The notes: generated from the letters alone by a model not told the origin. A stretch of 64,000 bases of DNA from Candidatus Binatia bacterium (GCA_963666315.2 CAXXHG010000022.1:32001-96000), one strand, 5' to 3'. Numbered from the stretch's first letter, positions 169 through 62,065 are shown. Program-made: numbers and translations.

Positions 169-202
169 GTTTAAGGGGAACACCGTTTATTGAAAAGAAA
201 GC

Positions 203-385: not shown

Positions 386-407
386 TTGGCAAACTGTTGG
401 CAAACGA
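386..407. repeat. Putative integrase arm-type site, island A left
   Basis: ttggcaaactgttggcaaacga, identical to 46509-46530. Confidence 0.8.
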
Positions 408-816: not shown

Positions 817-875
817 GAATGGCATTCAAGAGGTCGTGAGTTCAATTCTCATCGGCTCCACTCCTTTTCTCCTTA
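817..875 (+). repeat. 3' fragment of tRNA-Ala(GGC) plus 15-bp tail (relic att site)
   Basis: gaatggcattcaagaggtcgtgagttcaattctcatcggctcca: anticodon loop, T arm and acceptor strand, no 5' half; inverted copy at 51701-51759. Confidence 0.8.
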
Positions 876-3086: not shown

Positions 3087-3310
3087 GCACTGTCAAGTTA
3101 TCGGGGTAGAGTACGAAACTCACCTGCTGTGAGGTATGTTAGAGTCCTTTTTACGCAGGCATCCGACCGTTCCGCCAAGAGTTCTTCGACCTCCCGGAAG
3201 CTAAGCGAGAAGCGATAATACAGCCAGACCGCATGACTGATGATCTCCGAGGGAAACCGATGATTTCTATACAGACTTTTCGTACACTTCTCCTGGCAAA
3301 GCTGTGCCAA
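3087..3310 (-). mobile_element. IS6-family remnant (right IR plus N-terminal transposase fragment)
   Basis: gcactgtcaagttatcgggg matches the IS6 end at ~56090-56109; YRNHRFPSEIISHAVWLYYRFSLSFREVEELLAER. Confidence 0.85.
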
Positions 3311-3602
3311 GGTAGAGGGTTTTCCGAACGGACGACATGACGATCTGATCGATGCGACATCAAAGGCGTTCGCGAAACTAACAGGCGGTAACCGGGTTGT
3401 TCAGCGGAAGTTACTCGGGCTATAACGCGCAGACATCCCTATAAGTGCGAATCTGCCCGCCACCGGCCCCTCCCCACGGCCTTGTCCAGCTTCATATGTC
3501 TTGATTCGGCCACTGATCAGTCTCCGCGTGTCGGCGAGCCCAACCCCAACTCTGGTCATCCCCCTCCTTATTTCCTATAATCCGGGCGACAAGCGGGGGT
3601 GC

Positions 3603-41878: not shown

Positions 41879-41995
41879 ACGCCTGGGCGACATAGCCCTC
41901 ATCCGCGATAACTTGACACCGCGATCTTGACAACTCTACATTGAGCGACGGTAGTATCGATATTCGTTCTGAATTCCATTCGGAGATGAGGCACT

Positions 41996-43671: not shown

Positions 43672-43756
43672 AGAAGGCACCGGGCTTCTTGTTTCTTCCC
43701 CTGCCCCTGCCACAGCCGGGCCAGGCTCGTGGCCGCGCGGAGTTCCCAGGATTTGG
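43672..43756 (-). pseudogene. AC-TPR 3' fragment
   Basis: KSWELRAATSLARLWQGQGKKQEAR. Confidence 0.85.
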
Positions 43757-45393: not shown

Positions 45394-46578
45394 ATGGCAC
45401 AAAACGGAACATGGAAGCGGATAGAGCCGCAGCTTTATCGCTTAAAACACCAAACCCCAACTGGCGAATGGACCACCCGCTACTACGCGCGCTTTAAGGA
45501 TTGGAAAGGCGTGAATCGGAAGGTTCCGGCCGGCACTGATCTGCGCGGCGCGAGAACAAAGAAAAAGCTGCTGCTTGGCGAAAATGCGCGCCACGTGGAT
45601 TTCGATACGTAGAAAACCCGCGCCACCACGTTAGCGCAATGGGCTGAGGTCTACCTGGACCGGTATGCTAAGGATAAACGTTCCATTTTAGAAGATCGCC
45701 GCCACGTCCGCGTGCTCATCGAGTTCTTTGGCAATGCGCTCTTATCGCAAATCACAGCGGGGAAGATTAACGACTTCAAGCAAGTCCGGAAAGACCGACT
45801 GACCTAGCGCGGTGATCCCGTCAGTGTCTCATACTGTAACCGGGAACTCGCCTGTCTACGCCACCTCCTGAAACTCGCAGAGGAGAAAGACCTGATCGAC
45901 AAAGCTCCTATGGTTCGTTTGCATCAAGGGGAGAACAGCCGAGATATTGCACTCTCGACTGAGGAGTACCAGCGGATTCTAACGCTTGCTCCGGCGCACC
46001 TTCAACGGATAATGCTCTGCGCCTATGAGACAGGGATGCGCTCTCGGGAAATCGCGGACTTGACCTGGGACAAAGTGGACATGGAGGCTGGCGTTATTCG
46101 TTTAGGAACGGTAGACACCAAGACGAAACACAAGCGTATCATCCCCATCCCCCTACCCTGCGGACTGTGCTTACGGAGATCCGGGCGAGCCAACGCCAGG
46201 GCAAGGTGGCCCCGATCAGCGGACATGTCTTTACCTGGAAGGGAAAAGCGTTCAGCAGGCAGGGCTGGAAGCGGTCGTGGAAAACGGCATGTACCAAAGG
46301 CGGATTAGTAGGACGTACATTTCCATGACCTGCGCCATACCTTTGTGACCCGAAAAGTGCGGGAGGGCTGGGACTACAAGCGGATCATGGCAATAACGGG
46401 CCATAAGACATTCTCTGTTTTCCAACGCTACAACAACCCGTCAGAGGATGACATTAAAGAAGTCGTGTCGGCATCCCGCCCAAAAAGAACGTCGGCAGAG
46501 CACGTTCGTTGGCAAACTGTTGGCAAACGACCTATGAGTCCTTCCACACCCATCCGGCCTATTGCGCTAAGTCTCTGA
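45394..46578 (+). pseudogene. Tyrosine recombinase/integrase of island A (stops at 45610 and 45805; frameshifts ~46150 and ~46305)
   Basis: NRELACLRH, ETGMR, FHDLRH, TGHKT, QRY. Confidence 0.92.
46509..46530. repeat. Putative arm-type site, island A right
   Basis: Identical to 386-407. Confidence 0.8.
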
Positions 46579-46598
46579 ATCAAAAGGGAAAAGAAAAG

Positions 46599-46673
46599 TG
46601 CGCCCTGGAAGATTCGAACTTCCGACCTACAGATTCGTAGTCTGCCGCTCTATCCAGACTGAGCTAAGGGCGC
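46599..46673 (-). tRNA. tRNA-Arg(ACG)
   Basis: gcgcccttagctcagtctggatagagcggcagactACGaatctgtaggtcggaagttcgaatcttccagggcgca folds as a full cloverleaf; CCA not encoded. Confidence 0.96.
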
Positions 46674-46721
46674 GTAATGAAATCAAGTACTTACAGGGGT
46701 TGCCCGATGGCGCTTGATTGC

Positions 46722-46742
46722 GAGTAGAAACAGAGTAGAAAT
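46722..46742. repeat. Putative arm-type site, island B left
   Basis: gagtagaaacagagtagaaat, identical to 57071-57091. Confidence 0.8.
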
Positions 46743-46870
46743 TTTCTGTCCCATAAGTCTCTTCATGGTACAGACTCACACCGAATTCATCAAGCGCGGG
46801 ATCACTGGTGTGAGAGGCGCCAACGCTCTCAAGGAGCCTCAGCGTGCGTCTGCAACTGCTAAACGCGGGG

Positions 46871-49663
46871 TTAGCTTACTTTCCGCCTCGGAGGAGGGCC
46901 TTCAACAACTTCGCGCAGATCATCCTCACTCGGGTTGTTGTATCGCTGAAAAACAGAGAACGTCTTATGGCCCGTGATCGCCATGATCCGCTTGTAGTCC
47001 CAGCCCTCCCGCACTTTTCGGGTCACAAAGGTATGGCGCAGGTCATGGAAATGTACGTCCTCTAACTTTGCCTTTCGGCACGCGGTATTGAACGCCCGCT
47101 TCCAGCCTTCGGTCATGCGTTTTCCGCCCCAGGTGAAGACCTGGCCCCCGATCGGCGCGACCTTGCCTTCCCGCTGCTCTGTGCGAATCCCCTCCAGCAC
47201 TTCCCGGCAGACGGCAGAGATCGGTATCGCCCGCTTATAACTTGTCTTCGTGTCCTCTGTCGCCAGACGAATAAAGCCCGAGGCAAAGTCGACCTTGTCC
47301 CAGGTCAGCTCTTTGATCTCGCCGGACCGCATGCCGGTCTCATAGGTGCAGACGAGAATCCGCCGCAGATGTGCAGGCGCGCACGCAAGTAGGCTCTCGT
47401 ACTCGTCTTCAGACAATGTTCTCTCCCGGGCGTTATCTTCCTGATGGAGTTTCACGATGGGCGCCGAGTCCAAAATACCCTCTTCCGCCGCCAGGCGCAG
47501 GAGATGCCGCAGACAGGCGAGTTCACGATTGCAGTACGCCGCACTTACCGGGTGCCCACGCACTGTCTGACGGGATTTCCTGAGCTGTTTGAATTCCTCC
47601 ACGCGTGATCGGGTAACGCTGGAGAGCAGCACCGGACCGAAGAAGTCGCCGACGCGGTTCTCACTACTTGCAGCGATAACCGCGTCACCCGGGTAATACA
47701 GCACCGACTCTGCCATCAGCGTCATGTCCGTAACCGTCACGGTACCATCTCTGTTCATATCTTTCTGGAGTGGCCAGTCGCGTTGGCCGGTCAGCACCCC
47801 CCACCGGCTCTCCGCTTCTTCGTCGCCCCGGTCCGCAGCTTTGCGATACCATTCTGCCGCTTGCTGTCGATCACGCGGGACGCCGCGTCCGTATTCAGAC
47901 AGCAGTCCGAGGTTATAGTGCGCTTCCACGTTTTCGTGGTACGCGGCCTTGGAAAACCACTGCCTTGCGAGCTGATAATCCTGCGGCACCCCCTGACCAT
48001 GCAAATACATAGTGGCTAAGGAGACCTGTGCATTGACTTGGCCTTGCTCGCCCGCCTTGCGGTACCACGCCGCTGCATCACGGTAGTTCTCGACGACGCC
48101 GTAGCCCGCATAATACGCATCCCCCAGATCCCACTGTGCGTCTGCATGCCCTTGGTCGGCGGCTTTACGGTACCATTTGATTGCTTCGGGATAGTCTTGC
48201 GGGACGCCGTAGGCCTGGAAGTACATCGTGCCGAGTATATATTGCGCTTGTGCGTGTCCTTGGTCTGCCGCTTTGCGGTACCAGTGCACCGCTTCAAGAT
48301 CGTCCGTCTCCGCGATGAGGCCGAGAGAGTACACTTCCCCCAACAAAAACTGGGCCGTTGCCAGACCCTGGTCCGCCGCCTTACGATACCATTTTGCCGC
48401 CGCCACAAAATCTTCCGGCACCCCGAGACCCTCAGAGTATATCCGGCCTAATGAGAACTGCGCCTTGGCATGTCCTTGACCTGCAGCTTTGGCATACCAC
48501 TTGTGTGCTTCTTGAGCACTCTGCGTCACACCGTACCCCCGCCAGTACAGGTAGCCTAGGCTGTACTGCGCTGCAGCATCCCCTCGATCCGCGGCCTTCC
48601 GTGTCCACTTGGCTGCTTCTTCATAATCCTGTGCTACGCCGTGGCCCTCAGCGTAGATTTGGCCCAGAACATATTGGGCCTCGGCGTCGTCCTGGTCTGC
48701 GGCCCTGTGGTACCATTTCTGCGCTTCGGCATGATCCTGCACGACTCGGTAGCCGCTGTGGTACATATCACCCAAGCTGCGTTGCGCCACGACGTAGCCC
48801 TGCTCTGCCGCTTTGCGGTGCCACTGCAGTGACTCTTCGGCGTTCGGCTCGACACCCTGCCCGTCGGCATACATTGCGGCCAATGTGAGCTGCGCTTGGC
48901 CACTCCCTTGATCTGCCGCTTTGCGGTACCACTTCCGCGCTTCCGCGTAATCCTGCTCGACGCCGTGGCCCGCCATGTACAGATTCCCCAGGTTGTATTG
49001 CGCCGTCGCGTTCCCCTGGTCAGCGGCTTTGCGGTACCACCTCTCCGCCGTTTGATAATTCTGCTCGAGGCCTTGGCCGTGGTCGTACAGATAACCCAAG
49101 GCGAGCTGCGCCGTAGCATCGCCTTGGGCGGCGGCTTTACGGTACCACAGCGCGGCTTCCTGGCAATCCTGCGTCACGCCCCGGCCTTTGTCGTAGAGAA
49201 CGCCCAGGTAACTCTGCGCTTCCTTTTCGCCTTGGTCGGCGGCCTTGCGATACCACTTTGCGGCGGTAGGAAAGTCCTGCGGCACGCCGTAACCCAGTTG
49301 GTATAAGTGACCTAGATTGGTCTGCGCCAAGTCCATGCCCTGGGCCGCAGATTTACGGTACCACTTGAGTGCTTCCTGAAAGTCTTGCTCGACGCCTCGG
49401 CCTTCGGCGTGCATGAATCCGACCCAGAACTCCGCATCGGCCTCTCCCTGGTCCGCGGCCTTGCGCCACCAGTGCAGAGCTGCCGCATCGTCTTGCGGAC
49501 CTCTGGTGCCGGCGTAGTGGACATACCCCATCATGACCTGCGCGGAGGCCTCACCCTTGGTGGCCCTCTCCTGAAGGTCTGCGAAACGGTCAGCCAGCGT
49601 CAGAACGGGGCTGAGCAACAATCCACACGTCAGAGACAGTATTCCTGTCTGCCGAATGTTCAT
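46871..49663 (-). CDS. Fusion ORF: signal peptide + 16 Sel1-like repeats + DxNxDG loop + tyrosine recombinase core/catalytic domain
   Basis: 16 WYRKAAxQG-type repeats; ETGMR, TKT, HDLRH, GH and RY intact in the same frame; junction at FFG ~47640. Confidence 0.85.
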   Translation of the reverse strand: MNIRQTGILSLTCGLLLSPVLTLADRFADLQERATKGEASAQVMMGYVHYAGTRGPQDDAAALHWWRKAADQGEADAEFWVGFMHAEGRGVEQDFQEALKWYRKSAAQGMDLAQTNLGHLYQLGYGVPQDFPTAAKWYRKAADQGEKEAQSYLGVLYDKGRGVTQDCQEAALWYRKAAAQGDATAQLALGYLYDHGQGLEQNYQTAERWYRKAADQGNATAQYNLGNLYMAGHGVEQDYAEARKWYRKAADQGSGQAQLTLAAMYADGQGVEPNAEESLQWHRKAAEQGYVVAQRSLGDMYHSGYRVVQDHAEAQKWYHRAADQDDAEAQYVLGQIYAEGHGVAQDYEEAAKWTRKAADRGDAAAQYSLGYLYWRGYGVTQSAQEAHKWYAKAAGQGHAKAQFSLGRIYSEGLGVPEDFVAAAKWYRKAADQGLATAQFLLGEVYSLGLIAETDDLEAVHWYRKAADQGHAQAQYILGTMYFQAYGVPQDYPEAIKWYRKAADQGHADAQWDLGDAYYAGYGVVENYRDAAAWYRKAGEQGQVNAQVSLATMYLHGQGVPQDYQLARQWFSKAAYHENVEAHYNLGLLSEYGRGVPRDRQQAAEWYRKAADRGDEEAESRWGVLTGQRDWPLQKDMNRDGTVTVTDMTLMAESVLYYPGDAVIAASSENRVGDFFGPVLLSSVTRSRVEEFKQLRKSRQTVRGHPVSAAYCNRELACLRHLLRLAAEEGILDSAPIVKLHQEDNARERTLSEDEYESLLACAPAHLRRILVCTYETGMRSGEIKELTWDKVDFASGFIRLATEDTKTSYKRAIPISAVCREVLEGIRTEQREGKVAPIGGQVFTWGGKRMTEGWKRAFNTACRKAKLEDVHFHDLRHTFVTRKVREGWDYKRIMAITGHKTFSVFQRYNNPSEDDLREVVEGPPPRRKVS

Positions 49664-49706
49664 CAGGTTGGCCCGTCTTCCGGAGGCTGCGTATGCTCTG
49701 TGAGAC

Positions 49707-51437
49707 TCAGAGTGGCGCCTCCAACAAAGTTTTGAAAAAACCCTTTGCCGCCTGAATTTCTTTGAGCAGGTCTTGCCGATTATCCAGTAACGTCTCCTTT
49801 GGAATCGCATCAAAATTCGGCATTTCCAACTTCTTAGCCAGATGCTCCATATTATCCTCGGTCAGAACGGTTTCCATATCTTCTAGTCTGGCCAGCCACG
49901 TTGCGGCAATTGTTCTGGATTGGGCGCTTTGCGCAATGCCCGGGCGGTCCTTGAGGCTCACATAGATCGGGGCGGAATGCACAAGACTCGTGGGTTTGAA
50001 GGAACTCCAATATAAAGGAGTCGCCATCGTATTTTCTTTGGGCTTCTCTCCGTAGCCGCGCACGGCGAACCAGGACGCTTCATTCACCAGATGACGAGCG
50101 CTGAATTCGATTCTGTCTGCACCCTTAACCCGGGAAAAGCGCTTGATCACATTACCGTTGTGCACAATTTCAACAATCGACAGATCATCCCTCTCAGGAT
50201 CAAACACCACACGGCCTGTGAGCTGCACCGAAGTGGCCTGCTCAAGTACGATGTCACTGCCTATCTCTTGGCCATTGACCTGAAACTCGACCAGCGGACC
50301 TGTTGTGACAAAGGTGCGGCCTTTGCGCACTCCTTCCAGCCAATTCGCGTAGGTTAATGGACCCTCGACTTTGGTATAAAAGCGCTCATGACCAGGGATG
50401 GTTTGTCCGCCACACGGATAGTCCGTCCCCGCTGTGGGAGTCACTCGGAAACCCAGCCCGAGAACATCGTACCAGGTCTCATAATCACTCCGATTAAATT
50501 GCAACACCTCCACAAAATGCAGCAGATTATGGGGCAGGACCACCGCCATACCATCGTGAGGAGCAACAACAGAACCGTTTGGAAGATAGGCATGGGCAAA
50601 TCCATTGATTGCCCCTTGCTTTACTGTTTCCTGCCACAGCAAACGATAAATGAGATATTTCTCAGGGCTGTGGTGAGCGGTGTCTGCGCCCAGCGTAATC
50701 GTGTGCCCCAGAAAGTGGCTGCGAGGATTTTCCTGGCCGGCTGCCAAGATGTAATCGCCCTCCTGATAATGGCTGTCCGGGCCATGGGCATGCTGCAGGG
50801 CAATGGTGAAATTCTTGACCTTGCCCATTTGCAGCAGGTTGGCCACATGAATGTCTTCGGCCTGCATCATTTTGGAGATATACGGATTCAGCTCTGGGTC
50901 AGGTCTTGGGATATGCAAATGATCATCCGAACTATACCAGCCGTTTTGCGGCAGGTTGCTCCAGCGGGTGAGTTCTATAGTGTGCTGGACCGTTTCTGCG
51001 GCTTTGATCTCTACCGTACCACTACCCACTCTGTATTCGGGACCTTTGAACACTGTGATAGTAGCCGCACCGGTTGGCAGCGGAATCGATGACTTTCCAT
51101 TGCTATAGAACTGGGTAGACTGCGTATACGGATTGTCGAGTCTGTCAGAAAAACCCGCCAGTGTGGACGCCAGGTCCACATACCCCGCGCCTTGATCACT
51201 CATGTCACAATCGCCACCAACCAGCAGCGCGTCCTCGGCAACATGATGCGTCCCATCTGCAGCGTGAATTTCCACTCGTGCAGGGATAGACTCCCCGGTG
51301 ACAGCGTCCGTGATCTTCAGCTGTAAGGTCCCCGTTGGCTCAGTGGCGAAGAGAGGAGTTGAGAACGCACCCAGTACGCACAAGAGCAATGCCACGATTG
51401 AAGGCGTCCGATATGGGAACCATTTCGCTGCGTACAT
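49707..51437 (-). CDS. Secreted CehA/McbA-family (PHP-like) metallohydrolase
   Basis: Signal peptide, GWYSSDDHLH, FAH, AGTD, GRTFVTTGP. Confidence 0.8.
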   Translation of the reverse strand: MYAAKWFPYRTPSIVALLLCVLGAFSTPLFATEPTGTLQLKITDAVTGESIPARVEIHAADGTHHVAEDALLVGGDCDMSDQGAGYVDLASTLAGFSDRLDNPYTQSTQFYSNGKSSIPLPTGAATITVFKGPEYRVGSGTVEIKAAETVQHTIELTRWSNLPQNGWYSSDDHLHIPRPDPELNPYISKMMQAEDIHVANLLQMGKVKNFTIALQHAHGPDSHYQEGDYILAAGQENPRSHFLGHTITLGADTAHHSPEKYLIYRLLWQETVKQGAINGFAHAYLPNGSVVAPHDGMAVVLPHNLLHFVEVLQFNRSDYETWYDVLGLGFRVTPTAGTDYPCGGQTIPGHERFYTKVEGPLTYANWLEGVRKGRTFVTTGPLVEFQVNGQEIGSDIVLEQATSVQLTGRVVFDPERDDLSIVEIVHNGNVIKRFSRVKGADRIEFSARHLVNEASWFAVRGYGEKPKENTMATPLYWSSFKPTSLVHSAPIYVSLKDRPGIAQSAQSRTIAATWLARLEDMETVLTEDNMEHLAKKLEMPNFDAIPKETLLDNRQDLLKEIQAAKGFFKTLLEAPL

Positions 51438-51700
51438 GATCTCCCCCCTTTTGACCGTACTGTGTATCAACTGTCCGCGTAACACGCCAGCAGAAACGTT
51501 GGTTCGTACGTGTCTCTGACTTTATCTAGTTGATCACGCAGGCGCGTGGATGGCGGCGTACCGGACGAAGGACAACTCAACGGAGAGAAGAAAGCGAAGT
51601 TAAATACGGCCACGTACGCTGCCTTTTGATAAACCAACAGCCACCAGCCGATTTAGGACAGAAATGGCCCGAAGGAGGAACTCCCTAAGCCACTGGACTC

Positions 51701-51762
51701 TAAGGAGAAAAGGAGTGGAGCCAATGAGAATTGAACTCACGACCACTTGAATGCCATTCAAG
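51701..51762 (-). repeat. 3' fragment of tRNA-Ala(GGC) plus tail (relic att site)
   Basis: 57/59 identical to 817-875 in inverted orientation; complete anticodon arm cttga-atGGCat-tcaag; no D arm or 5' strand. Confidence 0.8.
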
Positions 51763-51970
51763 TGGCGGCTGCGACACCTGCCTACTCCTGCCTAACAAAC
51801 CCAGTCATTTTAGCGCCCGCCTCGTTTTTTGTTATGCAGTGATTGGTTTACGTAGGCTGCAGTACACTGACAAAAGGCGGACAATGACCGTCTCAGTCGG
51901 ATTGAAGTGAATACGCCTGTACATTGGGCTACGATAATTCCTTTGCCAAAGCTATGCACCGTTGTATACA

Positions 51971-53011
51971 CTATTGGCGGAAATGCGGCATAACCTCTTT
52001 GGCAAACAGTTCCATTGAACGGCGTACCTTTTGCGGATCGAGTCCGGCCATCTGCATCCACATGACCAGGTGGGTCACGCGCGTTTCCTGGCGGTAGCGT
52101 TCGATCTCTTGGATCGCCGCGTCGGGTGTCCCAATGATGAGCGGCGCTTGGAAGAAGGAGAGATCTCGGACATGGCGCATCTCACCAGGCGGGGGGACAC
52201 TCGGTCTGGACATGACCGAAGCACTCCAAGGCAAGTCGTCGGCCTCTTTAAAGCGTCGGTCGTACGAACTCATCATATAGTGCAGATGCGGCTCCACGTC
52301 GTCCCACGCTTTGTCTCGGGTCTCCGCAACATAGACCGCTCGCAGCTGCGCAATATGATAGTCGTCTGGACGCCGACCATGCTGCTGCAATCCAGCGTCA
52401 TACATCCGCTGTAAGTCCGCACCACCACTCCCTCCCAAGTGATAGCCAAGGCGCGCCACTCGGGCCACCGATTTTTCGGCCATCGCCGCAATCCAAATCG
52501 GTGGGTACGGTTTCTGGACCGGCTTCGGAGCTAGCACGACTTCGCGCAGATTGTAGTGCGTGCCGGCAAAGGAGAAGCTGTCTTCCGTAAAACAGCGCCG
52601 GATAATCTCAGTGCCTTCTTCAAGGCGAGAGGCCCGTTCGCGCCGCGGAATGCCAAAACTGGCAAATTCGCTCAGCCAATACCCCTGCCCGATGCCGAGG
52701 TCGAGCCGACCGTCCGAGATGATGTCAACGGTCGCCGCATCTTCTGCCACGCGGACCGGGTTATGCAAAGGCAGGATGATGATATAGGTCCCCAGTCGAA
52801 TGCGACTCGTTTGCATAGCGATAGCGGACAAGATCGGGAAGAGGGACGGCGCCCAAGCATCGTCAGCAAAATGATGCTCAGTCGTCCAGATATGATCGTA
52901 GCCCAACTCCTCCGCCAGGACGGCTTGCTCGATATGGTCCTGGTAGAGCTGCGGAAAAGGCACCGCCCATTGTTTTGGATTCCGAAACGGTAAAAGCAAG
53001 CCAAAATCCAT
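51971..53011 (-). CDS. LLM-class flavin-dependent oxidoreductase
   Basis: IWTTEHHF, PVRVAED, GRLDLGIGQGY; similar to 14775-15788. Confidence 0.92.
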   Translation of the reverse strand: MDFGLLLPFRNPKQWAVPFPQLYQDHIEQAVLAEELGYDHIWTTEHHFADDAWAPSLFPILSAIAMQTSRIRLGTYIIILPLHNPVRVAEDAATVDIISDGRLDLGIGQGYWLSEFASFGIPRRERASRLEEGTEIIRRCFTEDSFSFAGTHYNLREVVLAPKPVQKPYPPIWIAAMAEKSVARVARLGYHLGGSGGADLQRMYDAGLQQHGRRPDDYHIAQLRAVYVAETRDKAWDDVEPHLHYMMSSYDRRFKEADDLPWSASVMSRPSVPPPGEMRHVRDLSFFQAPLIIGTPDAAIQEIERYRQETRVTHLVMWMQMAGLDPQKVRRSMELFAKEVMPHFRQ

Positions 53012-53110
53012 CACGCCCCCTTGTCCCGTCGGCATTCTCACTATCGGAGTCTTGACAACCGGTGTGTACCCAGAGTCAGGCAGCGGTGCTCCGAGGTGAC
53101 AATTGTCTCT

Positions 53111-53286
53111 TCAGCTTAACTGCTCCAATACCGTTTTTGTCTCTTGCAAGTCCGCCGTGTCAAACCCTTCCGTGAACCAATTATAGACCGGCGCGAGAAG
53201 ATCGTGGGCTTCGGTTGTCTTCCCTTGCCCCTGCCACAGCCGGGCCAGGCTCGTGGCGGCGCGCAGTTCCCAGGATTTGGCTTCTG
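53111..53286 (-). pseudogene. AC-TPR 3' end (displaced copy)
   Basis: AKSWELRAATSLARLWQGQGKTTEAHDLLAPVYNWFTEGFDTADLQETKTVLEQLS*. Confidence 0.9.
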
Positions 53287-53297
53287 CAAAGACCGCG

Positions 53298-53738
53298 CTA
53301 CACCCACTCTTCCTCAGTATGGAGGCGGGTCAAGTGGATCTTCTTAAGCTTCCACTGGCCGTCTTCCTTCACATAGTCTTCCTGGTAGTGTCCCCAGCCC
53401 TTAAAGTGGCACGTCGGTAGGCGCACATCGTCGAACATCGACCAGACCCCACGTGCAGTAGTTGCGCTAGTCAGCTCGATTTCCGGCATATACCCCTGAT
53501 GGATCGATTTGGCGCCGGTCATCAGACTCCGGATCCCGTCCACCAGCGCGTCGCGCCCCGTGATCTCGATGTCACGCGGCAGATCCTTGCTCGCCCGTGG
53601 CGCACCCTCGTATAGCGCCGAAACATCAGCAGTAAAACATTCCGGGAAGAGGTCCCACTGCTGCGTGTCCATCAATCGGAAATAGCGCGCTTTGAGTTGC
53701 CGGATGGCTTCCACATCGTTGAGTTGGTCGCCGGTCAT
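53298..53738 (-). CDS. SnoaL/NTF2-like (BaiE/LinA-type) protein
   Basis: EAIRQLKARYFRLMD, PEIEL, GHYQEDYVKEDGQWK. Confidence 0.88.
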   Translation of the reverse strand: MTGDQLNDVEAIRQLKARYFRLMDTQQWDLFPECFTADVSALYEGAPRASKDLPRDIEITGRDALVDGIRSLMTGAKSIHQGYMPEIELTSATTARGVWSMFDDVRLPTCHFKGWGHYQEDYVKEDGQWKLKKIHLTRLHTEEEWV

Positions 53739-53833
53739 GTCTTGCTCCCTTCGGCTGCGTGTTCTTTGGTCTTCCGGCACAGAATACGTAACCACTCCGC
53801 ACCCAACAAGTTATGATATTTTCTGTCCTTGAG

Positions 53834-54265
53834 TCACTCCACCTCCCCATTCTCCATCCAACCCGCATAACTCGGGATCCCCGCCGGTTGATGCACCCAG
53901 CCATGCCGGCGTCTGCCGTAGACGGCCACATTCGGAGCGGGGAATCGGAGGTCTGTAAGGCAGCCCACGGCGACCACGATCTGACCACTCAGGGTAGGCA
54001 AACCTGGGATCACCCAATAGACCGTGGTCCCACAGGTCGGGCAGAAGTGAAACTCAATAACGAACCCTGCCTCGCCCGTGCGCTGATACACGTGTGTTTC
54101 ACCGTCGATCGTGACCTTCGGGCGCTCAAACAGAGCCGCGAGACTATACGTCGTGCCCGTGCGTCGCTGACATAGTTCGCAATGACACATCACCACCTGC
54201 GTAGGGTCTCCTTCACAGCGCACCTGAAGCTGCCCGCAATGACACGCAGCCGTTTGTTGTTTCAT
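53834..54265 (-). CDS. GFA (glutathione-dependent formaldehyde-activating) family protein
   Basis: CHCG, CHCELCQR, FCPTCGT. Confidence 0.9.
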   Translation of the reverse strand: MKQQTAACHCGQLQVRCEGDPTQVVMCHCELCQRRTGTTYSLAALFERPKVTIDGETHVYQRTGEAGFVIEFHFCPTCGTTVYWVIPGLPTLSGQIVVAVGCLTDLRFPAPNVAVYGRRRHGWVHQPAGIPSYAGWMENGEVE

Positions 54266-54339
54266 TCCGTCCTCCTCGTAATCGCTCTAGCGAGAAAGGC
54301 GTATGCTCAGCATCTCCCCGCTGCAAGGATCAACGAGTC

Positions 54340-54729
54340 TTATGCCTCGGCGAGATGGAACCACGGCAGACGTTCCTCTGGAAAATACTGTCTCCTGCTC
54401 GGCTGCAGCCGCGCGGCGTGATCGAACGCCCCGACAGGGAAATGCGTTTCCGTCGGCCCAGGGAGACTTTCGCAAGTCAAAGTGGACCCGCACCGGGGGC
54501 AAAATCCGCGCCGTGTTCTGCCTGGCGTAGAATCGAACTTGGTGATCTCGCCTTTGGTCACGGTATACGCCTCGCAGTCGAATGCCACGAAGACAGAAAC
54601 CGGCGCGCCACTATGCCTGCGACAACTTTGGCAATGACACCAATATACCCCCTTCGGTTCACCCGTTGCGATAAAACGGACCGCCCCGCACAGGCAGCCC
54701 CCTTCAAACTGCTCGGTCGTGCCGCTCAT
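54340..54729 (-). CDS. GFA family protein
   Basis: GGCLCG, CHCQSCR, FCPRCGS. Confidence 0.9.
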   Translation of the reverse strand: MSGTTEQFEGGCLCGAVRFIATGEPKGVYWCHCQSCRRHSGAPVSVFVAFDCEAYTVTKGEITKFDSTPGRTRRGFCPRCGSTLTCESLPGPTETHFPVGAFDHAARLQPSRRQYFPEERLPWFHLAEA

Positions 54730-54908
54730 GATCTGATCCTCCTACCTCGCCTTGGAATCAGTTAGTACGTCGGAAAAAGGCCGTGCCTTCTCCGGCCCCT
54801 AACCGCGCTAATCTATCTTACATATGGGCCTGCCGATAGCAAATAGACAAAGATGAGCGGTAAGCGTTTCTTGGGAGCCCCTGAGCTGGCCTTGGAGCCA
54901 GCAATCAG

Positions 54909-55271
54909 TCATGAGAGTTGGTCGAGCAGCGCCTTCGCGTCTTTCAAATCCGCCGTATCAAAGCCTTCCGTGAACCAATTATAGACCGGCGCGAGAAGAT
55001 CGTGGGCTTCGGTTGTCTTCCCTTGCCCCTGCCACAGCCGGGCCAGGCTCGTGGCGGCGCGCAGTTCCCAGGATTTGGCACTCTGGTGGCGAGCAACTTC
55101 AAGAGCGGTGTGAAAAGCGGCTTCTGATTCCGCATGATTGGCTTGCGACTGCTGGAGCAACAGCTCGCCCTTGAGGCGGTATAGCTCGACTTCGTAGTAA
55201 TGCTCCTCCGTTTCGTGCACTATATCTAGCCCTTCTGTTACTGCCTGCAGCCCTTCCTCACTCCTCCCGAC
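54909..55271 (-). pseudogene. AC-AAA-TPR gene, C-terminal TPR part, cut by IS6
   Basis: ELYRLKGELLL...AKSWELRAATSLARLW...FDTADLKDAKALLDQLS*. Confidence 0.9.
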
Positions 55272-56110
55272 GGTACTGTCAGCTTAACGAGGGGTTTGCC
55301 AACTATTGGTGTCTTATGCCGTGACAAGGGCATGAGTTCCTGTAGTACAAGTCTGTATAGAAGGCACCGGTTTCCGCCCGAAATCACCGCCCACGCGGTC
55401 TGGCTGTATCACCGTTTTAGCCTCAGTTTTCGTGAAGTCGAAGAACTCTTAGCCGAGCGCGGTGTCACCGTGAGCTATGAAGCCGTGCGTCAATGGTGTC
55501 TCAAGTTTGGCCACGCGTTCGCCCAGAAGCTCCGACACCAGCGAGGACGCCCGGGCGATACGTGGTATCTGGACGAGGTATTTATCCGCATCAGGGGCGA
55601 GCGCTACCACCTGTGGCGCGCTGTAGATCAAGATGGCCAGACGCTCGATATTCTCGTGCAGAAACGGCGCAATACCGGAGCGGCCAAGCGCTTCTTTCGG
55701 AAGTTATTGAAGGGTTTACGCTATGTGCCCAACCGCCTCATCACCGATAAACTTCGTAGTTATGGGTCAGCCCACCGAGATATTATGCCGTCGGTGACTC
55801 ACTGCACCACGCAGTACGCCAACAACCAGGCCGAAGTCTCTCATCAACCGACTCGGCAACGCGAACGCCACATGCCCGCTTCAAGTCTCTACGACACGTC
55901 CAACGCTTCCTCTCTGTCCATGGACCGATCAACAACCTCTTTCGAGTCGGTCGCCACCTCATGAAGGCAGTCCACTGTCGGTTGTTCCGAGACAAGGCAT
56001 TTGCAACCTGGCGGGACGTGACCACGGGGCTGGAAGTGGCGTAAGGATGCCCCTCATCTTACCTCACACTACGTGATTTTCGCACTCTGCCCCGATAACT
56101 TGACAGTACG
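55272..56110 (+). mobile_element. IS6-family element; transposase 55332-56044 frameshifted ~55875
   Basis: IRs ggtactgtcagctta / taacttgacagtac; WYLDE, WRAVDQDG, ITDK; no target-site duplication. Confidence 0.92.
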
Positions 56111-56828
56111 AGTGATAAGTATCGGTGCTAATGACCAGGGTGTCTGGTGCTGCTTGGCCTTGCACGCGGGCCGCAATATTCGGTGTCTCTCCCAGGGCCA
56201 ATTGTTCAGTATGTTCGCCACCACCCACTGCGCCAATGACCACGGGGCCGGTGTGCAGACCAATGCGGGCTTGGATCGGCTGAGCCAGCTCAAGTCTCGG
56301 TAAGGCCGCCAGGATGTCCAGCCCGGCTCTGACTCCCCGAATCGCATCGTCTTCATGCGCCGCTGGGTAGCCGAAGTACACCAGGATGCCATCCCCCAGG
56401 TATTGGGCGATATCACCCTCGTAGCGTTCAATGACTTGCCGACACGCGTCTTGATACGTGCCGACTATGGCGTGTAAGTCTTCCGGGTCGAGTTGTTCGG
56501 AGAGTGTCGTTGAGCCCACCACGTCGCAGAACATGACCGTCAGTTGGCGGCGTTCGCCTGCGGAAGTCTCAGGCAGAGCACAAGGTGGTGTTGGGGCCGT
56601 TGTCTCAGCCGGCGGACTTACGCCGTCACCGGAGATGGTATCATCATTCCAGACCAAGACTTTGCCATCTTCATCAACGGCTACGCGCTCGCCTATGATC
56701 AACTCGTCCTTAAGGGTATCCAGCGACTCCTCGTCAAGCTTGAATTACCGCTTCAGGGTCCGGTACGTGACCCGACCCTTGCTCCGCAGCACTGCCTTCG
56801 CTTGCTCGATCACCTCAAGAAAATCCAT
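56111..56828 (-). pseudogene. AC gene 5' part (stop at 56745), cut by IS6
   Basis: MDFLEVIEQAKAVLRSKGRV..., GERRQLTVMFCDVVGST, GDGILVYFGYP, GETPNIAAR. Confidence 0.9.
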
Positions 56829-57004
56829 GTGCCCCGCCTGTCGCGGGGATTATAGGCAACATCGAGGCTGATGAACAGAGTTGCGCTACTCGCTCAAGTT
56901 GCGACCACACTGCCGACTAAGGCTACGCTGTCGCGCACATCAGAATGAGCAGTGAAAAGTGCGCCGCATGCGTCGCAACCGTCACACAAAACACGGGTGA
57001 TTCT
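56829..57004 (-). promoter_or_regulatory. Conserved island leader with TATAAT (56849-56854)
   Basis: Homologous to 481-659. Confidence 0.75.
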
Positions 57005-57070
57005 TATCACGATGTTAAGATGTGGCGTCACCGTGGGACCAAGGGGAGCGGCAAGAAGGAAGGCGTTGTT

Positions 57071-57091
57071 GAGTAGAAACAGAGTAGAAAT
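57071..57091. repeat. Putative arm-type site, island B right
   Basis: Identical to 46722-46742. Confidence 0.8.
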
Positions 57092-57227
57092 ATTTGGTGC
57101 GAAACCAGGTCAAACGAGAGAGATGGGGAACAATAGGAAACGTGGGAGATCACACAGGTATACCAGCGAAGACGCAGGGTCACCGCTAACTAGCTGCTTT
57201 CGATTGAGTTTTACCTTGGGGGCCTTT

Positions 57228-57275
57228 GCGGGTTCGAAGCCCGTTGCTCTATCCAGACTGAGCTAAGGGCGCGTA
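57228..57275 (-). repeat. att site: 5' half of tRNA-Arg with a UCG anticodon arm, no T arm
   Basis: gcgcccttagctcagtctggatagagc-a-acggg-ctTCGaa-cccgc followed by unrelated sequence. Confidence 0.85.
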
Positions 57276-57500
57276 GATGAGAAAAGCGAACGCTGCAAGC
57301 GAGAGGGCTGACCAAAAAGGGTCCGCTAGGGCTTTCGTTATACCACACGCCGCCGGGAGATCGCAACTCGACCCTTTTGTTACCATTTTTTTTTGACAGT
57401 TCTTATTGTGAAACTTCTGTATACGCACCCTGCTTCAGTTACTATACCGGCAAGAGGGAACTTGCCGTCCTAACTACCGTTCTTCCTCTAGGAGGCTGTT

Positions 57501-58094
57501 ATGTGTGGGGGATGTGTTCGTCTTTGTGCTGTATTGATTGGTCTTCTTATTCTCGTTTTACCGCAGCGACTCTTGGCCACAACCGTCCTTTCCCAAAGCT
57601 TTCCGGACCTGGTGCATAAGGCCGAGGTTATTGCCGTCGGAACCGTAACAGGCATCAATAATCACTGGGATGCCGCGCACCGGGCACCATTTACTGTTGT
57701 TACCTTCTCGAACTTGAACGTACTGAAAGGCACGACCGAGGGAGACACCCTCAGCTTGTATTTCCTTGGCGGTATCACCCCAAAGGGACATACGATCTCC
57801 GTTCATGGCGTTCCACGCTTTTCAATAGGTGAGAAAAACATTGTCTTTTGTGTAGGCAATCAGCGCAATTTCAGTCCATTAGTCGGCGTGTGGCAAGGCC
57901 GACTGCGCGTTGCTTTTGATACGCAGCGTCAGGTCGAAACGGTTCAGGACAACTTCAATGCCCCGATTCTGGGCGTTCAGAATGGACAGTTTTTGAAAAA
58001 GACTCCGGGCAGCCAGGCTCGGCAACAACAATCGGTTTCTCTGTCTTCTTTCTTGCAGTTGATCCAAAATGAGCTGGGGAAGGACAATGACTAA
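57501..58094 (+). CDS. Secreted hypothetical protein
   Basis: Signal peptide, RBS ggagg, overlaps the next start codon. Confidence 0.75.
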   Translation: MCGGCVRLCAVLIGLLILVLPQRLLATTVLSQSFPDLVHKAEVIAVGTVTGINNHWDAAHRAPFTVVTFSNLNVLKGTTEGDTLSLYFLGGITPKGHTISVHGVPRFSIGEKNIVFCVGNQRNFSPLVGVWQGRLRVAFDTQRQVETVQDNFNAPILGVQNGQFLKKTPGSQARQQQSVSLSSFLQLIQNELGKDND

Positions 58095-59163
58095 TCAAAC
58101 AAGCAAACGCCAACGGCCTATGCTCTGGGTGTGGGGGCTGAGTAGCGTACTCCTCTGCGCGCTTGTTCTTCTTCCTCCAGCTGCTCGTCCTTTTGTTCGG
58201 ATTACTTTTCCGTCTGGCACGTCGGCATTCTGGTCCGCAGCTCAGGCCGATCTCAACCTCCAGCTTGGTTGTCCAGAAACGCCGCTATCCGACTTTGGTC
58301 CGTGTTGGGATGATGTGGCAAAGAGTGCAGCCGAAAGCTGGAATACGAATGCGGAAATATTTCGCTTCACCACTCCTCCTCCGACCCCAGCTTCCCCGTG
58401 TGAAGACGTGGAGAGTCTGGACTTTCTCAATACTGTGGCTTTCCAGGACACCCTGTGTGGGACTGCATTTGGTGGGGCGGTGGCCGTCACTTTTTCCAGA
58501 GTGTTCTCAACCGGAGAACTCGTGGATACCGGTGTGGTGGTCAATGGAAACCTCACCTGGTCTGCCTATACTGGTCCTCTCGGATTTCCATTCGACCTGC
58601 GCCGTGTCCTTATTCACGAATTTGGGCACGTCCTGGGGTTAGACCACCCCAATCAATCCGGACAAACCGTGGATGCTATTATGAATAGTACGGTCAGTGA
58701 TCTCGACGAGCTTCAGGCCGACGACATCGCAGGAGTGAACGCTATTTACCCTGGGTCTCCAGTTGGGGTATTGGAGAACCCACAACCGGATAGCTCGGTC
58801 AGTGGCTTGGCCATTATTACCGGCTGGATTTGTTCAGCGAGCATCGTCACGCTGGGCATTGATGGAGTTTTTTACACCGTCCTATATGGCTCATCTCGCA
58901 TCGATACCATCCCGACCTGTGGCGATGAATTTAATGGTTTCGGCTTTCCGATTAACTGGAACCTGCTGGGCGATGGTCTCCACACCATCATTGTTTTTGC
59001 AGACGGCGTCGAGGTTGGCCGAGCAACAGTCACCGTGACCACACTCGGCCAGGAATTTCTCGCCGGGGCGAGTGGGACGTTTACCTTGAGCTTTAACGGG
59101 CTGGAGGTTGTGATTGAGTGGAAGGAGAGCCTGCAGAATTTCCTGATCACGGGTATGCAATAA
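58087..59163 (+). CDS. Secreted matrixin-like (metzincin) metalloprotease with C-terminal beta domain
   Basis: HEFGHVLGLDH plus AIM Met-turn. Confidence 0.88.
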   Translation: MTNQTSKRQRPMLWVWGLSSVLLCALVLLPPAARPFVRITFPSGTSAFWSAAQADLNLQLGCPETPLSDFGPCWDDVAKSAAESWNTNAEIFRFTTPPPTPASPCEDVESLDFLNTVAFQDTLCGTAFGGAVAVTFSRVFSTGELVDTGVVVNGNLTWSAYTGPLGFPFDLRRVLIHEFGHVLGLDHPNQSGQTVDAIMNSTVSDLDELQADDIAGVNAIYPGSPVGVLENPQPDSSVSGLAIITGWICSASIVTLGIDGVFYTVLYGSSRIDTIPTCGDEFNGFGFPINWNLLGDGLHTIIVFADGVEVGRATVTVTTLGQEFLAGASGTFTLSFNGLEVVIEWKESLQNFLITGMQ

Positions 59164-59168
59164 AAGTA

Positions 59169-59494: not shown

Positions 59495-60943
59495 ATGAAT
59501 TTACGGAAACACCGAAAGCTGTGGAAAATCGTGTTAGCCCTCGGCGCTGCAGCTCTTGCCATAAGCATGCCCAGACCGACTTATGCGATGAACGAAGATC
59601 GCATGCAGCAGCTTGAGGAACAATTGACAACGATGCAACAAGCCATGTCCGCCATGCAGCAGGAGCTGCAGACGCTACGGGCTGAGCAGCAACAAGAAAA
59701 GGAAGAGCACGCCCGCAAGCAAAATGTGCTGGCGGAAGAAGTCGATAAGCTGCGCACAAGCTTAACCATTCCGGAGTTCAAGCCCTTAACCATGGAGGAC
59801 AGCGTATACGGCCTCGGGCCGGCAGCATCCAAAGTGTACGGGGTTGCGAGCGGACTGTCGCTCGGCGGGTATGGCGAAGCCTTTTACCGTAAGGATGTAG
59901 GCGACAAAACCAAAAGCGACCGAGACACCGCCGACTTTCTGCGCTTCGTGCTCTATGCGGGGTATAAGTTCACAGAACGCATCATTTTGAATGCCGAACT
60001 GGAATTCGAACACGCCACAACCAGCTCAACGGAAAGTGCAGGCGGGGGGTCGGTGTCAGTGGAGTTCGCCTATCTCGATTTCCTAACGTGGAAATGGATG
60101 AACTTCCGCGTCGGCATGCTCCTCGTGCCTATGGGCATTGTCAATGAACTCCACGAGCCCGTCTTCTTTAACGGCGTGGAGCGGCCGGAAGTCGAGCGAC
60201 GTATTATTCTTTCCACGTGGCGAGAAAACGGCATCGGCATCTTTGGCGAGCTGGGCGCGCTGGCCGAAGGACTCGAATACCGCATCTACGGGATCAATGG
60301 TCTGAATGCTAAAGGCTTTCGCGACACTGGCATTCGCGGCGGTCGTCAGAAAGGTAATCGTACCCTGGCCGAGGACATTGCGTTTGTGGCACGACTCGAC
60401 TATTCTCCGACGCCGAATTTCATGCTGGGCGCGTCCGTGTATACCGGAGACTCCGGACAGAACCAGGAAATCGATACGGTCGAGTTGCCAGACTCGCGGA
60501 TCACAATCTGGGAGCTGCACAGCATCTATCGTTACGCTGGTCTTGAGGCACGCGGTCTATTTGCCATGTCCCACCTGGGTGACGCAGGCGAGTTGACGGA
60601 TGCGCTGCGTGAAATCGGCGAACTGGGCTCAAGCCGCACTCTGGCCAGCCAAATGATCGGTGGCTACGGCGAAATCTCGTACGACATTATGCCCCTTCTG
60701 TATCCGGGCAGTGACCACACTCTCACCCCGTTCTTACGCTTCGCTTATCTCAACCTGCAACATAAAACGCCATCCGGCTCACACTATCAGGTGAATCCCA
60801 GTCGCGAGATGCGTATCTGGACGCCAGGTGTTAGCTATAAGCCGCATCCCAACGTCGTACTCAAGGTGGATTACCGCAACTTTAATACGGTGCAGGGTCA
60901 TCGTGCGAATGAGGTAAATTTTGGTATTGGCTTTGTCTTTTAG
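59495..60943 (+). CDS. Outer-membrane porin-like beta-barrel with N-terminal coiled coil
   Basis: Signal peptide, GGYGE, ELEFEH, VEFAYLDF, NELHEP, C-terminal Phe. Confidence 0.82.
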   Translation: MNLRKHRKLWKIVLALGAAALAISMPRPTYAMNEDRMQQLEEQLTTMQQAMSAMQQELQTLRAEQQQEKEEHARKQNVLAEEVDKLRTSLTIPEFKPLTMEDSVYGLGPAASKVYGVASGLSLGGYGEAFYRKDVGDKTKSDRDTADFLRFVLYAGYKFTERIILNAELEFEHATTSSTESAGGGSVSVEFAYLDFLTWKWMNFRVGMLLVPMGIVNELHEPVFFNGVERPEVERRIILSTWRENGIGIFGELGALAEGLEYRIYGINGLNAKGFRDTGIRGGRQKGNRTLAEDIAFVARLDYSPTPNFMLGASVYTGDSGQNQEIDTVELPDSRITIWELHSIYRYAGLEARGLFAMSHLGDAGELTDALREIGELGSSRTLASQMIGGYGEISYDIMPLLYPGSDHTLTPFLRFAYLNLQHKTPSGSHYQVNPSREMRIWTPGVSYKPHPNVVLKVDYRNFNTVQGHRANEVNFGIGFVF

Positions 60944-61487
60944 AGCCCTGAGCAGTACGCTAGTGCTGTGCCTGCTGGTGGTGCTGGGCGGCATCAGCAG
61001 CGTCAACGCAAAGGTTTTCTTTTCAAAAGAAGAGGCCCTGGAGATTGCGTTTCCCCACGCCCAACGAGTCGAGGCACGTAATTTTTTCTTAACCCAAGAG
61101 CAGGTCGAACAGGTGCAAACACTGGCAAAAGCCCGCCTTGACTCAAAACTGGCCACCTTTCATGTCGGCCATACAGCCGAAGAAATTCTGGGTTATGCTT
61201 TTATTGAGACCCATATCGTCCGCACCTTTCCGGAAACGTTCCTGATTGTCTTGTCACCCGAGGGCACTTTACAAAAACTCCTTGTTCTTGCTTTTTACGA
61301 GCCAGCCGAATATCAACCTCCCGAGCGCTGGCTCAAACAGTTTGACCAGAAAACGTTGAGTTCGTCGCTCCGACTTCGCCAAGACCTTCATGGCATTATG
61401 GGCTCAACCCTGACAGCCCAAGCCGTCACCAGTGGGGTACGGAAGGTTATGGCACTCTTTCAGATCCTGATTCAAGAGAAACAATAG
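60921..61487 (+). CDS. Extracytoplasmic FMN-binding domain protein
   Basis: AFYEPAEY, WLKQF, GIMGSTLT (variant of the SGAT flavinylation motif); start codon uncertain. Confidence 0.75.
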   Translation: MVLALSFRALSSTLVLCLLVVLGGISSVNAKVFFSKEEALEIAFPHAQRVEARNFFLTQEQVEQVQTLAKARLDSKLATFHVGHTAEEILGYAFIETHIVRTFPETFLIVLSPEGTLQKLLVLAFYEPAEYQPPERWLKQFDQKTLSSSLRLRQDLHGIMGSTLTAQAVTSGVRKVMALFQILIQEKQ

Positions 61488-61492
61488 GTTCT

Positions 61493-62065
61493 ATGCGTTT
61501 TGTCGTTACTGGCGAGTGGTCGAAAAACCGGCTCCTGCAACTCATTATTGTTATTTTTGTGATCTATGTCGCCGGTCTGTGGCTGACGAATGCGCTGTTG
61601 TATTTCCACAAAATGGATCTGACCTCTCTCTCCGTCACGCAATACTACCTAGGCTCAGAAGAGCTTTTTCTTCAGCCCAGGAGCTACCAAGGCATGCTCG
61701 AAGTCACACATTTTCACTTGTTTGCCATGGGCCTCTTACTCCTCACGCTCACCCACTTGATGCTGTTCGTGCCATTATCAACCAATCTCAAAGCCTGGTT
61801 CATCATCATCCCCTTTTTCTCCGCGTTGGCGGATGAAGGCAGTGGCTGGCTTGTCCGCTTTGTGCACCCGGGTTTCGCCTACCTCAAGATTGTGAGCTTT
61901 CTCGCCTTAGAAATCAGCCTTGCGGTATTAATCATTGTCACGCTGTGGGCGGTCTTTCGAGGCTCTCAGGACCAGTATCAACAGCAACCGCCTACGCGGT
62001 CTCCCAAAGACCCGCCAGGCTTAGAAAATGTCGGCCTGGGTGAGGCAAGCGAGCTGACGGAATGA
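61493..62065 (+). CDS. Four-TM membrane protein with His residues
   Basis: Hydrophobic helices, THFHLF, LTH. Confidence 0.75.
   Translation: MRFVVTGEWSKNRLLQLIIVIFVIYVAGLWLTNALLYFHKMDLTSLSVTQYYLGSEELFLQPRSYQGMLEVTHFHLFAMGLLLLTLTHLMLFVPLSTNLKAWFIIIPFFSALADEGSGWLVRFVHPGFAYLKIVSFLALEISLAVLIIVTLWAVFRGSQDQYQQQPPTRSPKDPPGLENVGLGEASELTE

Follow-up and report, generated by a model that had tools for sequence, protein, structure and literature searches.

Mirror-image islands on either side of one tRNA-Arg(ACG) gene in a Candidatus Binatia bacterium: a probable pair of 3'-type and 5'-type elements from a single integrase family

The locus

The subject of this study is a tRNA-Arg(ACG) gene and the two genomic islands, here called A and B, that adjoin it on either side in a 64,000-nucleotide stretch of DNA from a Candidatus Binatia bacterium (GCA_963666315.2, CAXXHG010000022.1:32001-96000; hereafter the window, from whose first letter all coordinates are counted). 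A preliminary description of this DNA had proposed that the two islands are sisters which converge on the gene and supply its two halves. Calling of tRNA genes in the window with ARAGORN and Rfam returned three sequences: tRNA-Arg(ACG), tRNA-Ser(GCU) and a marginal tRNA-like sequence at 51715-51802. One intact tRNA-Arg gene sits between an interval bracketed by copies of its 3' part (243-46597, island A) and an interval bracketed by copies of its 5' part (46677-57245, island B), and island flanks border it on both sides.

198-242, minus strand: displaced native 3' fragment, anticodon loop to 3' end with the native flank, discriminator G
243-46597: island A, 46.4 kb
46598-46673, minus strand: intact tRNA-Arg(ACG), called by ARAGORN and Rfam, 68.3 bits
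46647-46676, minus strand: 30-bp identity block, copy within the intact gene
46677-57245: island B, 10.6 kb
57246-57275, minus strand: displaced native 5' fragment (30-bp block) with the native upstream flank
57337-57366, minus strand: native tRNA-Arg promoter, TTGCGA-18-TATAAC with TG, conserved in the relative L004
59169-59257, minus strand: tRNA-Ser(GCU), whose place upstream of tRNA-Arg(ACG) is conserved among relatives

Read base by base, 46647-46676 and 57246-57275 agree at 30/30 positions as a direct repeat, which bears out the proposal that island B repeats 30 bp at the 5' end of the tRNA and displaces that end. The block spans positions -3 to +27 of tRNA-Arg, that is, 3 nt upstream and 27 nt of the 5' end (the 5' strand of the acceptor stem and the whole D arm), and its edges are sharp (46646 c versus 57245 t; 46677 a versus 57276 g). 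With up to three mismatches allowed, the 27-mer occurs exactly twice in the window, and two matches were obtained in 0 of 100 shuffles. On the other side of the gene, 198-242 and 46595-46639 are identical at 44/45 positions, the final 40 nt being exact, so that island A does repeat the 3' half of the tRNA as had been stated.

The native locus in relatives

A genome scan with the 27-mer returned four loci, the source genome of the window not being among them: L001 and L004 in complete Candidatus Binatia chromosomes, L003 in a Bacillota metagenome-assembled genome (MAG), and L002 on a 15-kb MAG contig. L001 is syntenic with window positions 59727-63120 and with the tRNA-Ser, and the window is for this reason taken to be a Binatia-like chromosome. 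In L001, L004 and L003 alike, tRNA-Ser(GCU) is followed by a spacer of 64-138 nt with a promoter and then by one complete tRNA-Arg(ACG). The empty locus thus carries a single tRNA-Arg(ACG) in all three relatives that have the Ser-Arg locus (3/3), and two complete tRNA-Arg genes were not seen. No tyrosine-recombinase-like open reading frame (ORF) was evident up to 10 kb downstream in L001 and L004 on reading the ORFs, which were not Pfam-scanned.

The spacer promoters read TTGCGA-18-TAGAAA plus TG in L004 and TTGCCC-17-TATAAT plus TG in L003, compared with TTGCGA-18-TATAAC plus TG in the window; the host promoter proposed at 57337-57347 is therefore native, being conserved in L004 with an analogous site in L003. 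Further, the 20 nt upstream of the displaced 5' fragment match L004 (57292-57233, 85%). Since both flank and promoter are conserved in relatives, 57246-57275 is taken to be the native 5' end still lying on its native promoter. At the other end of the gene, the displaced 3' fragment shares its discriminator G73 and its GCTTTC flank with the native genes of L001 and L004, whereas the intact gene carries A73 and the flank of island A. It is because of this different discriminator and flank that the 3' half of the intact gene is assigned to island-A DNA. Overall, sequence comparison indicates that the intact tRNA-Arg is a chimera, with its 5' part to +27 and its upstream flank from B and its 3' part from A, and the assembly of the gene from element-supplied halves, as first proposed, is thereby upheld. 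In effect, island A has switched the discriminator from the native G to A (46599 versus 202, with L001 and L004 compared).

The 27-mer is present once in each of the two complete Binatia chromosomes, which suggests that tRNA-Arg(ACG) is a single-copy gene, copies with a different 5' sequence being possible. Where the relatives have only 64-138 nt, the window has 1.9 kb (57276-59168) between tRNA-Ser and the tRNA-Arg promoter, with two plus-strand ORFs, one for a protein of 197 aa and one for a matrixin-like peptidase of 364 aa. In L004, 6 kb downstream of tRNA-Arg, there is a protein whose repeated C-terminal domain is similar.

The fourth locus, L002 (contig CAZXFE010000081.1, 15 kb), bears the label Enterobacteriaceae and matches the window locus at 79-97% identity; with a type III restriction-modification system, ectoine genes and Binatia-like sequence, it is probably misbinned. 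Its central block compares with the window at 84% on the side of the A-type 9-mer pair described below, 97% in the tRNA (with A73), 79% in the B-side flank and 81% over the last ~80 nt of intB, the integrase gene of island B. The cargo beyond this block is unrelated to that of the window. From these alignments the central arrangement appears to be old and to have outlasted the replacement of the island bodies.

Two related islands and their integrases

The cargo of island A is catabolic (LLM monooxygenases, Rieske oxygenases, HpaB and others), and no phage or conjugation genes were found among the 40 ORFs scanned. Island B measures 10,569 bp between its repeats; its large ORFs are mostly in the same orientation as the tRNA, and its cargo is degraded. 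Compared by blastn, the two islands match at their ends in inverted orientation only. The integrase regions (46920-47596 versus 46451-45772) are 71% identical over 685 nt, and the distal ends match at 56816-57008 versus 672-477 (82%) and at 56719-56883 versus 3712-3547 (84%). As judged from these matches, islands A and B are related mirror images flanking one tRNA, with an integrase gene adjoining the tRNA in each, and the claim that B is inverted relative to A holds.

45394-46578, plus strand: intA, pseudogene of a tyrosine integrase, interrupted by two in-frame stop codons and two frameshifts
46871-47770, minus strand: intB remnant, which keeps the core-binding and catalytic domains of a ~365-aa integrase and lacks its first ~61 residues
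46871-49813, minus strand: 980-aa ORF with 16 Sel1 repeats in frame with the intB remnant
386-407, plus strand: distal tandem 9-mers of island A, TTGGCAAAC twice with an 11-nt period, putative arm-type sites
46509-46530, plus strand: integrase-proximal tandem 9-mers of island A, TTGGCAAAC, exactly kept in L002
46722-46745, minus strand: integrase-proximal tandem 9-mers of island B, TTTCTACTC twice with an 11-nt period
57071-57094, minus strand: distal tandem 9-mers of island B, TTTCTACTC

The intB remnant forms the C-terminal ~300 codons of the 980-aa ORF. Its catalytic motifs are present (HDLRH and FQRY in translation, that is, HxxR and the tyrosine), and it is matched by phrog_1 integrase at E = 3.7e-42. 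The ~365-aa full-length relatives align to it only from their residue ~62, and for this reason its N-terminal domain is considered lost; an N-terminal arm-binding domain is accordingly absent from intB, while for the N-terminal 72 aa of intA no model in Pfam, PHROG or NCBIfam gives a match. With both integrase genes broken, the islands are immobile; to judge by their reading frames both integrases are dead, and the arrangement is a fossil. In the chimeric 980-aa ORF the Sel1 repeats have a 108-nt period and an alternative Met lies ~50 codons in; a 592-aa ORF upstream (49707-51485) overlaps its start.

How closely the two elements are related can be gauged within an integrase family of 461 proteins, collected from a large protein set at E <= 0.001. 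intA and intB share 57% identity across 264 aligned residues. The full-length relatives of intB reach 73%, and one 208-aa fragment reaches 95%; the best relative of intA among the 120 listed stands at 77.5%. The two genes thus belong to one family, and they are not mutual nearest kin. The term 'sister islands' was apt in so far as one family and mirror images are concerned and fails as to sisterhood, each integrase having closer relatives elsewhere. In tblastn of the intB remnant, 2516 plasmid and 464 phage records were all below 60%, with the best among the matches listed at no more than 37%, and neither set offered a usable near relative in an annotated setting.

The identical stretch reported for the two integrases is slightly longer than first stated, at 47/47 residues (46312-46452 on the plus strand, 47059-46919 on the minus strand), with 10 of 141 nt differing. 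A tract of ~130 nt of intA and intB (46300-46430 versus 47070-46940) is 84-100% identical, compared with 51-78% for the remaining gene, and all 47 residues are shared by only one of the 74 family members in which the block aligns end to end. The identical tracts are inverted copies that lie 438 nt apart across the tRNA. The ~130-nt tract is likely to reflect gene conversion between the inverted integrase copies and not a recent common origin.

Each island has its 9-mers in pairs near its two ends, oriented alike with respect to its own integrase. Exact copies of TTTCTACTC number four in the 64 kb, 4/4 of them within the island-B end pairs; of the six exact copies of TTGGCAAAC, four fall within the island-A end pairs. 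When the attachment sites of the two elements (attP) are rebuilt from the island ends, both 9-mer pairs align in register, and the tandem 9-mers are read as putative arm-type sites of a lambda-like kind. The scaffold is colinear in both elements, running from integrase through 9-mer pair and core to the second 9-mer pair, whereas the tRNA core differs: in A the 3' half follows the integrase in reverse-complement form, and in B the 5' part stands in forward sense. The mirror-image disposition of the islands follows from this, only the tRNA-derived core being flipped on a colinear scaffold.

One more feature lies at the distal end of island B.

57228-57245, minus strand: hairpin resembling an anticodon arm (stem of 4 bp, loop of 7 nt, CTTCGAA), immediately following the displaced 5' fragment

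Its register is exactly that of the real anticodon arm, whose loop reads CTACGAA. The distance from the hairpin to the distal putative arm sites is 139 nt, the corresponding distance being 143 nt for the anticodon-loop core of island A. The hairpin may represent a core-type binding site, or else a vestigial anticodon-loop core from the tRNA-Arg of another host.

Expression of the regenerated tRNA

The intact tRNA-Arg is 10.6 kb away from its native promoter. A default scan of 46300-47300 for sigma-70 promoters and terminators revealed no promoter, and no terminator-like site between the last ORF and the tRNA. A laxer scan yielded a single site matching 8/12 positions within 400 nt upstream of the tRNA.

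46765-46793, minus strand: weak candidate promoter, TTGATG-17-TACCAT, 8/12 in the laxer scan

The counterpart of this site at the same aligned position of L002 reads TTGATG-17-TACAAC. It is plausible, from the position of the gene, that the intact tRNA-Arg depends on an island promoter. Transcription from island-B DNA also fits the published picture of elements that use the 5' half of a tRNA gene as attB, the target site in the host, since such tRNAs are described as element-driven in the section of PMC8371274 that deals with them. The preliminary description had gone further and suggested that dependence on an island promoter could lock the island in. This is not supported, since excision, or recombination between the 30-bp repeats, would reunite the gene with its native promoter and 5' end, and the immobility of the island comes from the broken integrases. 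Precise loss of island B would cost nothing, and only partial deletions that take the ~200 nt next to the tRNA would be harmful.

Comparison with known systems

Islands that carry a 5' fragment of a tRNA gene (tDNA) are on record: 159 of the 3919 islands in Islander do so (Hudson, Lau and Williams 2015, PMC4383910). Like island B, these 5'-type islands have an intact tDNA, a same-orientation 5' fragment upstream, an internal tyrosine integrase and a length of 2-200 kb (PMC4383910). Measured by the Islander criteria, the window has a full-length tDNA accompanied by a same-orientation terminal fragment (the 30-bp direct repeat from the tRNA 5' end), the 5' fragment 57246-57275 upstream of the minus-strand gene and the 3' fragment 198-242 downstream, and a length of island B within the range; an integrase lies in the interval (PF00589 in the 980-aa ORF, E = 3e-26, the ~61 first codons being absent), and the island is missing at the corresponding site in L001, L004 and L003, relatives that are not of the same species. 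Island B differs from the islands that Islander terms 'putatively active' in that its integrase is truncated and in that the same tDNA bears a 3'-type island on its other side (PMC4383910). Unlike the present account, the Islander paper gives the count only, with no anatomy (PMC4383910).

There is a likeness in description to archaeal pTN3-like elements, for which PMC8371274, a review of archaeal recombinases, relays from Cossu et al. 2017 a 5'-half attB and a regenerated tRNA driven by the integrase promoter, a situation there called 'seldomly encountered in bacteria'. As described in that section of PMC8371274, they resemble island B in their 5'-half attB, in the restoration of the gene by the element, and in an integrase gene upstream of and co-oriented with the tRNA. 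Another passage of PMC8371274 gives pTN3 int(N) and int(C) moieties, which imply that int is split on integration. In contrast, the int of island B ends 198 nt before the tRNA, with a separate att region, putative lambda-like tandem arm repeats and a bacterial host, and the likeness is one of description only. A parallel of another kind is offered by dusA-specific integrases, which, according to the part of PMC4482086 that concerns them, integrate into host genes at the 5' end, which obliges the element to supply a new one; their target is protein-coding, unlike tRNA-Arg, and here too the likeness is by description.

Island A conforms to the canonical elements that use the anticodon loop of a tDNA, with a block from anticodon loop to 3' end, an integrase beside the regenerated gene and the native promoter kept. 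Island B departs from these in using the opposite end of the gene and in having a block that stops at the D stem. Three sublocations are recognised for tRNA-targeting integrases, namely the anticodon loop, the T loop and the 3' end (the Williams 2002 classification, as cited in PMC4383910 and PMC8371274). Island A falls into the first; the block of island B, from -3 to +27, corresponds to none. Neither 5'-fragment islands nor element-driven tRNA expression is new, both being already in print. No description of a mirrored pair of 3' and 5' islands at one tRNA was found in the literature searched, which is weak evidence of absence, as phrases containing 5' cannot be searched for. Island B is of a known but uncommon kind, and the added interest lies in the occupation of one gene from its two sides by elements of a single family, one canonical and the other of the 5' type.

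Proposed history and alternative explanations

Taken together, the evidence makes it probable that a locus of tRNA-Ser(GCU), promoter and tRNA-Arg(ACG) was used twice by a single family of tyrosine integrases, island A being a 3'-type and island B a 5'-type tDNA island. Island A would have integrated canonically, with an attP that carried the stretch from anticodon loop to 3' end, and the native 3' part would have been pushed to 198-242. Island B would have integrated in the rare way: its attP would have carried -3 to +27, downstream of and co-oriented with its own integrase gene, and the native 5' part, with the promoter still attached, would have been pushed to 57246-57275. Since both junctions are clean, the crossover is placed within the 30-bp block; in the intact gene the two strands of the anticodon stem are native, and the right junction diverges from +28 on. 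Most likely the crossover would have taken place at the inner, D-arm end of the block, by analogy with 3'-type elements, in which identity runs from the crossover to the end of the gene. Such a D-arm crossover would fall outside the three sublocations described for bacteria. The intact gene would then be a three-part chimera of island B, ~7 native nucleotides and island A, and the tRNA would be transcribed from island-B DNA, either by read-through from the co-oriented ORFs or from the weak promoter at 46793-46765. Both integrases would have decayed afterwards, a diverged copy of the central part surviving in L002.

Several observations weigh against this history. There is one full two-ended example only, as L002 is homologous by descent and not independent; moreover, L002 is without a second 5' block in the 10.2 kb examined, and no exact copy is present elsewhere in the 15-kb contig. 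The D stem, where the island-B block stops, is not among the three published sublocations, and the hairpin occupies the place expected of an anticodon-loop core, so that the cognate crossover site of island B may be elsewhere. The truncation of intB precludes any inference on its activity. As for transcription, the default scan gave no sigma-70 site of at least 9/12 between intB and the tRNA, and the B-side flank of L002 (79%) is no better conserved than the A-side (84%), with no sign of selection on a promoter.

The hairpin gives rise to the most substantial of the competing explanations, itself an unlikely one. It takes island B for an anticodon-loop element with the hairpin (stem ACGGG/CCCG, loop CTTCGAA) as its true core and with another tRNA-Arg, that of another host or a UCG isoacceptor, as its cognate target. 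The element would have entered once, non-cognately, by a RecA-type or aberrant event in the shared 27-30-nt 5' block, and in no other recombinant would the tRNA stay functional. The geometry is agreeable: the loop begins 34 nt from the acceptor start, as in a real anticodon arm, its distance of 139 nt from the distal arm sites is close to the 143 nt of the anticodon-loop core of A, the 5' side of the hairpin resembles the core side of the A attP (GCAACG...), and the palindromic central TTCGAA would allow either orientation. However, a crossover in the loop predicts hybrid stems at both junctions, where native and hairpin strand pairs are seen instead; a matching anticodon arm is present in no tRNA of the four loci examined, and an extra event is required. 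Besides, 30 bp is close to the lower limit for homologous recombination. It is rather less probable still that there were no two independent integrations and that the central block arose by inverted duplication of the integrase-proximal end of one element, to be inherited or moved thereafter as a unit. This would suit the occurrence of the block in L002 at 79-84% amid otherwise unrelated cargo, as well as the ~130-nt tract at 84-100% against 51-78% for the remaining integrase genes and the 47 residues shared in full by only 1/74 family members, which tell that the copies exchanged sequence. Yet an inverted duplication cannot yield a direct repeat of the 5' block, the 9-mers of A and B agree at only 4/9 positions, and the integrases, 57% identical, are each closer to others (B up to 73% for full-length proteins and 95% for the 208-aa fragment, A 77.5%); the distal ends are homologous too, each with its own pair of putative arm sites.

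In some bacteria, such as E. coli, multi-copy arrays of tRNA-Arg(ACG) follow tRNA-Ser(GCU), and 57228-57272 could in principle be the remnant of a second tandem tRNA-Arg gene cut by an unrelated deletion. This is the least credible of the explanations and a very improbable one, given the one tRNA-Arg(ACG) in 3/3 relatives with the Ser-Arg locus and the single occurrence of the 27-mer per complete Binatia chromosome (n=2). It is also the fragment that has the native promoter and flank, the intact gene having island flanks on both sides, and the interval contains a cognate integrase, with matched pairs of putative arm sites at either end. Other rearrangements were considered and set aside. An inversion between the integrase 3' ends, or of the whole of island B, does not yield a direct repeat of the 5' block when worked out on paper. 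For a single composite insertion of 57 kb with an anticodon-loop crossover, the left junction fits, and the hybrid stem predicted at the right junction is not seen. Nor did the element bring a copy of the native promoter, as the regions upstream of the two blocks align globally below the shuffle mean.

Beyond the history of two integrations in opposite modes, a bolder version can be put forward tentatively, and it is more doubtful than otherwise: in a single family of bacterial integrases the tRNA core of attP would have flipped against an otherwise colinear scaffold, so that kindred elements would provide opposite halves of one tRNA gene. Crossover of the form that supplies the 5' part would take place in the D arm, as a fourth sublocation that mirrors the T loop. 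An essential and probably single-copy tRNA-Arg(ACG) would thereby have become a three-part chimera, with its transcription captured for good by the DNA of fossil islands.

Other features of the islands

The islands hold traces of further mobile elements and repeated sequences.

55296-55964, plus strand: IS6-family transposase in island B

This transposase (DDE_Tnp_IS240) interrupts a cyclase/AAA/TPR regulator gene. An end-like repeated motif beginning with TGTCAAGTTATCG is found at 56060-56107 in island B, at 3089-3136 and 41895-41918 in island A, and at 10105-10147 of L004, 25 nt past the native tRNA-Arg. In island A, an exact 39-nt direct repeat (600-638 and 3545-3583) flanks a 2.9-kb segment, which breaks up a stretch homologous to the unbroken 56719-57008 of island B and is possibly a further nested insertion. 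Repeats of 91% identity at 53121-53281, 54919-55079 and 43682-43756 encode the C-terminal TPR end of large regulator genes, and are thus fragments of one gene family present in both islands.

The marginal tRNA-like sequence in island B resembles the 3' half of a tRNA-Ala(GGC) (51716-51782, minus strand) and has an inverted copy in island A (817-870, plus strand). It is made up of a perfect 10-bp palindrome around GGC, then the T arm and the 3' strand of the acceptor; the B copy scores 29.4 bits in Rfam, right at the tRNA threshold, and the homology with L002 ends within the palindrome. Its appearance is that of a fossil att fragment left by a third type of element.

Significance

No new mechanism is revealed by this locus, and both of its elements are dead. 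Integration into the 5' part of a tRNA gene is a minority mode (~4% of Islander islands) in which the element must provide for the transcription of the host gene. The locus affords a clean, fully bounded bacterial example of the 5' type, while across the gene an element of the same integrase family exemplifies the canonical mode. Islands A and B thus constitute a natural pair for studying how target polarity shifts in the evolution of integrases. The arrangement also bears on the annotation of tRNA operons and island boundaries in MAGs. It illustrates, too, that a tRNA gene which is probably single-copy can become almost entirely mobile-element DNA, 10.6 kb off its own promoter.

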